Assembly (NCBI RefSeq): GCF_003334765.1
Contig: NZ_QOWT01000093.1
DNA length: 951 bases
Reading direction: 5' to 3' (one strand)
DNA from: Escherichia coli
Lineage (GTDB): Bacteria > Pseudomonadota > Gammaproteobacteria > Enterobacterales > Enterobacteriaceae
The first letter of the stretch is position 1, and every line of letters begins with the position of its first letter. Under the pieces are notes generated by a model. That model was given only the letters and a program-made list of their open reading frames with translations. It had not been told where the DNA came from and searched no databases. Positions 1-951 of the stretch are shown in pieces. A program made the translations under genes and the position numbers.

Positions 1-222
1 CCCCTGCAGCGGGTCATAATAGCGGTGGCGGTTGTAATACAGGCCGGACTCCTCATCATACTGCTGCCCCGGCAGGCGGATAAGCTGCTGCAGCTGATGC
101 GGGTTCTCTTCATTCAGCAGGTTGCCCCATTCATCGTATTCTGCGCACCATTCTGTTGCCCCTTCCGTGCTGATAAGCGCCAGCGGCAGGCCGCGATGGT
201 CGCAGTGGTACAGGTGGATTTT
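1..222 (-). other. RHS repeat-associated core domain (C-terminal end of the Rhs core, immediately before the expected autoproteolytic DPxGL junction)
   Basis: The translation [74 protein letters not shown] has the characteristic shape Y-x-x-D-H-x-G-x-P ... W ... Y-D-x-W-G ... Y-D-x-E-x-G-L-Y-Y-N-R-x-R-Y-Y-D-P-x-x-G-R of the conserved Rhs C-terminal core domain. The domain is cut by the window edge. Confidence 0.75.
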
Positions 223-951
223 TCGCGCCGGCGTGTACACCGGGTCCATCTGGTTTTGCATCTGCTCCACGGTCAGGCCGCACGATGCCAGCCAGCGGCG
301 GCTTTCCTCACTCACCCGGTCAGCCAGGATTTCACTTTCCAGCCGGTCGAGCATCTGCACCAGCACCGGCGGGAACACCACACTGCCACCGTCTTCGCCG
401 CCGGACTGCTGAAGCGCATCCGCCAGGCTGCGGCGCTGCGTTTTCGCCAGCTCACCGGTGGCGGTTTCAACTCTGATGAGTGGCGTGAAGCTCCCCGGCT
501 GATAAATCGTCTGGATGCGGGTTCTGTCGTTCTGTATTGTGGTCAGCCGGTCGCCGTCCCAGCCGTACCAGGTCACTTGCGGTTTCCGTGACAGCGACAT
601 CCAGCCCGTCAGGTCCCGTTCACGCCGCCACACCCGTTTTGCCACCCTGCGGCCCAGCGGGTCGTAAAGATAGCGACTTTCGACCAGCGGCTCTTCATAT
701 TGTGTCCGCGTGTAGTGCACCAGCCGGTGCTGACTGTCGTAATGGTACCGGTGAGTCCGCTCATCATCCGTGCGGATAACCCCTTCCGGGATGAGGTCGG
801 TTTTCTCTGTCAGCCTGCCGTGACGGTCATACCGGTAAAGATAGTGCGCGTCACGGGCGATACGGTTATCCGGCCACATGCTGAGGGTGCTGTCCGGGTG
901 CAGCTCCGGGTCGGGCAGGCGGTTACCTGCCGGGTCTGTGGCATACGGGAT
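1..951 (-). CDS. Rhs family protein, conserved core region (YD-repeat polymorphic toxin, RhsA/B/C-like); partial at both ends, internal fragment
   Basis: Reverse-complement translation in the frame whose codons end at position 1 gives 317 codons without a stop. The product contains YD-repeat motifs ([48 protein letters not shown]) and the Rhs signature [35 protein letters not shown]...[22 protein letters not shown], which I recognise from enterobacterial Rhs cores. GC-rich codon usage fits Rhs cores. No start or stop codon lies in the window, so the true gene ends are outside it. Confidence 0.93.
538..843 (-). other. Block of YD (RHS) repeat motifs within the Rhs core (protein-level repeats, beta-shell region)
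   Basis: Four spaced motifs of the form aromatic-x-Y-D-x-x-G/H-R-L on the minus-strand translation: [12 protein letters not shown] (808..843), [12 protein letters not shown] (718..753), [12 protein letters not shown] (640..675), [12 protein letters not shown] (538..573). This matches the YD-repeat consensus GxxxRYxYDxxGRL. Confidence 0.75.

Follow-up and report, generated by a model that had tools for sequence, protein, structure and literature searches.

A 951-base Escherichia coli window encodes part of a clade-I Rhs core on its minus strand and is most likely a repeat-collapsed contig

The stretch of DNA analyzed here (951 bases, 61.7% GC; hereafter the window) raises the question of which strand carries its coding sequence and from what kind of gene copy that sequence derives. 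The list of open reading frames (ORFs) prepared for it at the default cut-off of 60 aa contains exactly four entries, and all of them, as the initial annotation had pointed out, lie on the plus strand. That annotation proposed that these are false genes and that the true one, a fragment of an Rhs core, is read from the minus strand, having been dropped by a finder that discards ORFs open at the edges of the sequence. The description of the ORF tool agrees with the latter point, as it says that an ORF extending past either end of the source is left out of the list.

On the minus strand, the frame with codons ending at position 1 contains no stops in 317 codons, precisely as had been claimed; the remaining five frames of the window show 1, 16, 9, 7 and 18 stops. 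Five YD-type repeats are readable in the 317-aa translation of this frame, the fifth of which is YHCDHRGLP. The 10-residue Rhs core signature is likewise present at aa 305-314 (plus-strand positions 10..39 of the window), within the part matched by the Rhs repeat-associated core model, so that the description of this frame as an Rhs core with YD repeats and a signature is borne out. The positions of the features on both strands are collected in Table 1.

Table 1. Features of the 951-base window (positions on the plus strand; aa numbers refer to the 317-aa minus-strand translation unless stated otherwise)
Feature	Position	Strand	Basis or remarks
ORF fragment, start and stop absent inside the window	1..951	-	RhsB residues 899-1215 of 1411 aa (STK39-3-E)
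YD repeat YRYDRHGRL, aa 39-47	811..837	-	Regular expression; weak Pfam RHS_repeat match at aa 38-52
YD repeat YHYDSQHRL, aa 69-77	721..747	-	Regular expression; best stretch of TIGR01643 (YD_repeat_2x) at aa 61-83
YD repeat YLYDPLGRR, aa 94-102	646..672	-	Regular expression; aligns with a Tse5 YD repeat
Degenerate YD repeat WYGWDGDRL, aa 128-136	544..570	-	From the translation; aligns with Tse5 FGWDGDR
Non-repeat insert of ~80 aa, aa 164-245	217..462	-	Lineage-specific; comparison with structures and RhsD
Pfam PF03527 "RHS protein" domain, aa 245-281	109..219	-	E 5.2e-15
TIGR03696 Rhs repeat-associated core, positions 1-42 of 76, aa 272-316	4..138	-	37.6 bits
Shadow ORF, 188 aa	25..591	+	Antisense to the Rhs frame and in register with its codons; not a gene
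Shadow ORF, 96 aa	122..412	+	Internal stops in rhsC, rhsD and rhsE; not a gene
Shadow ORF, 63 aa	285..476	+	ATG replaced by GCG and stop lost in rhsD/rhsE; not a gene
Shadow ORF, 80 aa	537..779	+	Start codon lost in K-12 rhsB, rhsC, rhsD and rhsE; not a gene

The family membership of the minus-strand product is established by profile searches. An unbroken alignment with the NCBIfam model NF041261 (RHS_core; E 6.9e-206, 686.7 bits) takes in aa 1-317 and corresponds to positions 913-1229 of the 1261 in the profile. The cut-off of this model, 2000 bits, applies to whole proteins, and the shortfall of the window is expected with 317 of 1261 positions present; the closest full-length RhsB clears it with 2653.5 bits. 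The translation also exceeds the cut-offs of TIGR03696 (37.6 vs 32.5 bits), whose alignment proceeds from the first to the 42nd of 76 positions and is then broken off by the window edge, and of the YD-repeat model TIGR01643 (31.4 vs 15.8 bits), whereas its matches to Pfam RHS_repeat are weak. With PF03527 included, these matches are full-length in the case of NF041261 and fall on the minus strand only, which is the outcome that the initial annotation had anticipated for a homology search.

At the DNA level, megablast matches to the window occurred in 3,889 of 5,426 complete E. coli genomes (median, five per genome), and the best of them (99.7-99.8%) fall inside genes annotated as rhsA or rhsB, with strand and frame in agreement. 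The closest homologue is RhsB of STK39-3-E, to aa 899-1215 of which the translation is 100% identical, while the DNA differs at 2 bases. Among the K-12 genes, rhsA, rhsB and rhsC are 99.7%, 98.7% and 97.6% identical to the window, and their products (clade I, NF041261) show the same frame, repeats and signature. RhsD and RhsE, which form a more divergent subfamily, are collinear with it and have the same open frame, with about 80-81% protein and 78% DNA identity, the approximately 210 base differences being mostly synonymous. Sequence searches of the PDB further recovered the Rhs effectors of type VI secretion systems (T6SS), i.e., Pseudomonas aeruginosa Tse5 (8CP6) as the best match (E 3.8e-25), followed by the Salmonella bongori-type Rhs (8QJC/B/D), Pseudomonas protegens RhsA (7Q97) and Tse15 (8UXT), the whole set spanning E-values from 4e-25 to 5e-12. 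These structures match the window over its last YD repeats and the Rhs-associated core, though the sequence similarity is distant. With high confidence, we accordingly read the minus strand of the window as part of an E. coli clade-I rhs core of the RhsA/B/C type; the fragment itself is most likely a repeat-collapsed contig (see below).

The pattern of substitution agrees with this assignment. We compared the window with K-12 rhsC, rhsD and rhsE: relative to rhsD, the substitutions at the first, second and third codon positions of the minus frame number 42, 34 and 134, respectively, with dS of 1.02, dN of 0.126 and dN/dS of 0.12, and the comparison with rhsE likewise gives a dN/dS of 0.12. The Rhs frame is open in all seven of the copies that were compared. 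The frame of the 188-aa plus-strand ORF, in contrast, has dN/dS values of 1.7-1.95 across the three paralogues, and that shared by the ORFs of 63 and 80 aa a value of about 3. The value in the frame of the 96-aa ORF is lower (0.25), because its third positions coincide with the third positions of the sense codons; this same frame contains 16 stops. Thus, a search for a plus-strand frame that is better conserved than the Rhs frame yielded none (dN/dS 0.12 for the minus frame vs 1.9 for that of the 188-aa ORF).

The four plus-strand ORFs are shadow ORFs, by-products of the composition of a gene that has 62% GC and is GC-rich at its third positions. The plus-strand frame in register with rhs, counted from base 1, has one stop in 317 codons. 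This near absence of stops, and hence the 188-aa shadow ORF, results from the codon usage of the sense strand, which lacks TTA and CTA and uses TCA once. The initial annotation had described all four translations as rich in Pro, Arg and Ala. This holds for the two shorter ones, in which these residues make up 46% and 38%, but not for the 188-aa (30%) and 96-aa (25%) ORFs, which are rich in Ala/Leu/Val/Arg and in Ser, respectively; the corresponding share in the Rhs frame is 22%. None of the NCBIfam profiles matched any of the four ORFs at E up to 1, nor did Pfam match the 188-aa ORF at E up to 10. A promoter scan of both strands of the window found no promoter-like site, and a terminator scan found a single terminator-like hairpin, which is the number expected from shuffles, so that neither scan provides signals for the plus-strand ORFs. 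A low-scoring Rfam match to the trypanosomatid snoRNA TB11Cs5H2 (354..417, minus strand), seen at a lax threshold, was set aside as chance (21.5 bits vs a gathering threshold of 47; E 0.053).

Two readings that would deny the Rhs frame its status as the coding sequence, or its exclusive claim to it, can be weighed against these data. A GC content of 62% lowers the frequency of stops, and an open frame could arise from this composition in DNA that codes for nothing: in 80 of 20,000 dinucleotide-preserving shuffles (0.4%) at least one of the six frames was fully open, and an estimate from base composition puts the probability of the minus-strand frame being open throughout at about 6e-5. Chance of this kind would produce neither the RHS_core match (E 7e-206), nor the 42/34/134 bias across codon positions with its dN/dS of 0.12, nor annotated orthologues in thousands of genomes, and we dismiss it. 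The other reading takes one or more of the plus-strand ORFs, chiefly that of 188 aa, for a real antisense gene overlapping rhs. It can draw on the in-register plus frame with its solitary stop, and on the fact that the 188-aa ORF is intact in the rhsA, rhsB and rhsC copies. However, the scarcity of stops follows from the sense codon usage, and the intactness in these three genes merely mirrors their 97.6-99.8% DNA identity to the window. Where the paralogues are more divergent, the ORF is broken, with a stop at codon 8 in rhsD and loss of the terminal stop in both rhsD and rhsE, and dN/dS in its frame is 1.7-1.95. Adding the want of a family match and of a promoter-like site, and the RefSeq annotation of the rhsA and rhsB loci, which places nothing on the strand opposite rhs, we consider the probability of an antisense gene to be negligible. 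The warning that annotation from the ORF track would yield four false genes and miss the true one was hence well founded, as the plus-strand ORFs are without family and lose their starts or stops in the paralogues.

Having placed the window in the Rhs family, we mapped it onto the full-length protein. It comprises the C-terminal third of the YD-repeat core and the first 42 of the 76 positions of the Rhs-associated core domain, and is devoid of a start, a stop, a toxin tip, an immunity gene and the catalytic motif. A hyperconserved motif of 61 aa described for Rhs ends in DPXG-(18)-DPXG (Jackson et al. 2009, PMC2935791; for the definitions of the boundary motif see PMC2935791 and PMC3150448). 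The DPXG-(18)-DPXG element falls 6-32 codons outside the window; in the closest full-length homologue it is seen as QDPIGL and a further 10-residue stretch, the two DPxG aspartates being situated 6 and 28 codons past window position 1, and the PxxxxDPxGL boundary occupies RhsB 1238-1247. In P. protegens RhsA, the aspartates D1324 and D1346, which are 22 residues apart, are required for C-terminal autocleavage (PMC8765631), and the closest E. coli homologue has an aspartate pair with the same spacing. In solved Rhs and Tc toxins the YD repeats form a hollow beta-sheet cocoon around the variable C-terminal toxin, and the core's C-terminal region spirals inward, plugs the cocoon and serves as an aspartyl autoprotease, freeing the toxin (PMC8765631). 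This architecture of cocoon and plug, as seen in the solved T6SS Rhs effectors, would be expected for the E. coli core too (PMC8765631). By homology, the segment encoded by the window would supply the last turns that close the beta-cocoon, together with the beginning of the plug/autoprotease that spirals inward. In the homologous loci, the core (about 60% GC) gives way, outside the window, to a variable toxin tip of 37% GC, which is followed by a small immunity gene, yhhH or yibA. At its opposite end, the N-terminus of the closest RhsB (locus 8446..9645) has a DUF6531 domain (E 5e-18), with the match to a PAAR motif not being significant (E 0.18), and no vgrG was present beside rhsA or rhsB in the loci that were read.

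Between the degenerate YD repeat and the PF03527 domain lies the non-repeat insert. In 8QJC the linker equivalent to it measures only 3 aa, and in Tse5 (8CP6) it has about 30 aa; a PDB sequence search with the insert alone (aa 157-250) recovered no match up to E 10. It is also the less conserved part of the segment, with 67% identity to RhsD (aa 166-240) as against 83-86% in its flanks. One could conceive of it as a functional module specific to clade I, such as one that serves docking or gating during delivery in strains without an adjacent vgrG or PAAR, an idea that we regard as unlikely; the alternative is that the insert is a passive loop.

What remains is the origin of the fragment, on which both of its edges are informative. 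The ybfO gene of K-12, an orphan core fragment (or "silent cassette") downstream of rhsC that is annotated as a pseudogene and does not have the first 898 codons and the start of a full-length gene, aligns with the core from rhsC nucleotide 2695 onward, and this nucleotide is equivalent to the first base of the reading frame in the window (position 951). Upstream of this edge the full-length cores read ...GATATCCGC, whereas the orphan is preceded by unrelated AT-rich DNA (...GGCATTGAT). At the other edge, the bases directly past position 1 are CGA in rhsB and rhsC, CGG in rhsA and AGG in ybfO, the copies differing at the first and third of them. The exact 317-aa product was found in 22 metagenome contigs, none of which reaches 2 kb. 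Those shown, ten in number, come from independent metagenome assemblies, are each 953 bases long, start at the same base as the window and end two bases (CG) past it; relative to the window they have 1-8 differing sites, all of them synonymous, and none is identical to it in every base.

Since the window ends exactly where the rhs copies diverge, it most likely represents a repeat-collapsed contig produced when a metagenome was assembled from short reads, a reading suggested by the coincidence of its edges and the recurrent size of 953 bases. An assembler confronted with several rhs copies would emit the longest stretch common to them as one short contig, in which the single-base differences inside the stretch are merged, and full-length genes would thereby be blended with ybfO-type orphan core fragments into one consensus. 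The base differences can be read in the same light. Among complete E. coli genomes there is no exact match to the 951 bases, the best copy having 2 mismatches, and every difference from the two nearest of these copies falls within positions 130..178 of the window (130 and 157 for STK39-3-E rhsB; 159, 167 and 178 for K-12 rhsA). Positions 100-200 (101 bases) nonetheless have exact matches in several complete E. coli genomes, inside genes annotated as rhsC or RHS core, although looking for them in a set with one genome per species gave no exact match. The window mixes variants of different cores, which points to a mosaic haplotype, as may be generated by recombination among cores or by the building of a consensus by the assembler. 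The mismatch patterns are insufficient for singling out rhsA, rhsB or rhsC as the source, the window sharing variants with different cores; being common to several rhs copies, it cannot be tied to any one of the three.

A further reading would derive the window solely from a silent orphan core fragment, i.e., a ybfO-type pseudogene downstream of a full-length rhs. K-12 ybfO does span the whole window at 98.6% identity with the same frame open, and its match starts exactly at the first codon of the window. Nevertheless, ybfO differs from the window by 13 mismatches, as opposed to the 2-3 that separate it from its nearest matches in full-length rhsA and rhsB. Moreover, a contig would break at the orphan junction only if both orphan and full-length paths were present in the sample, which an orphan-only origin does not provide, and the same two break points recur in ten independent assemblies. 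We thus judge an exclusively orphan origin to be very unlikely and retain the repeat-collapsed contig as the preferred explanation. As the window is shared with orphans, placement in an intact gene and placement in an orphan fragment are indistinguishable from it. The "real gene" of the initial annotation accordingly stands as genuine Rhs coding sequence that may or may not lie in an intact, expressed gene, the segment being common to full-length rhs genes and ybfO-type orphans.

Knowledge of the E. coli Rhs elements dates back to the 1980s. The window belongs to a gene family already known in its best-studied host, and as the segment is annotated in thousands of genomes, the biology of the window adds nothing new. 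Its value lies in what it says about annotation practice. An ORF finder that requires a stop misses a gene that spans a short contig, and GC-rich genes yield antisense shadow ORFs in its place. Similarly, when a gene exists in several copies, as rhs does, short contigs of it are consensus pieces delimited by repeat junctions and are unsuitable for locus assignment, for counting as one gene and for the calling of alleles.

Orphan fragments are also seen at the rhsA locus of K-12 (2045..4619), where two pseudogene fragments annotated as "RHS repeat-associated core" lie downstream of rhsA and yibA. One of them matches positions 1..385 of the window at 95%. A frameshifted Imm57 immunity gene is likewise found downstream of rhsA and yibA, the whole corresponding to the known pattern of displaced C-terminal tips.
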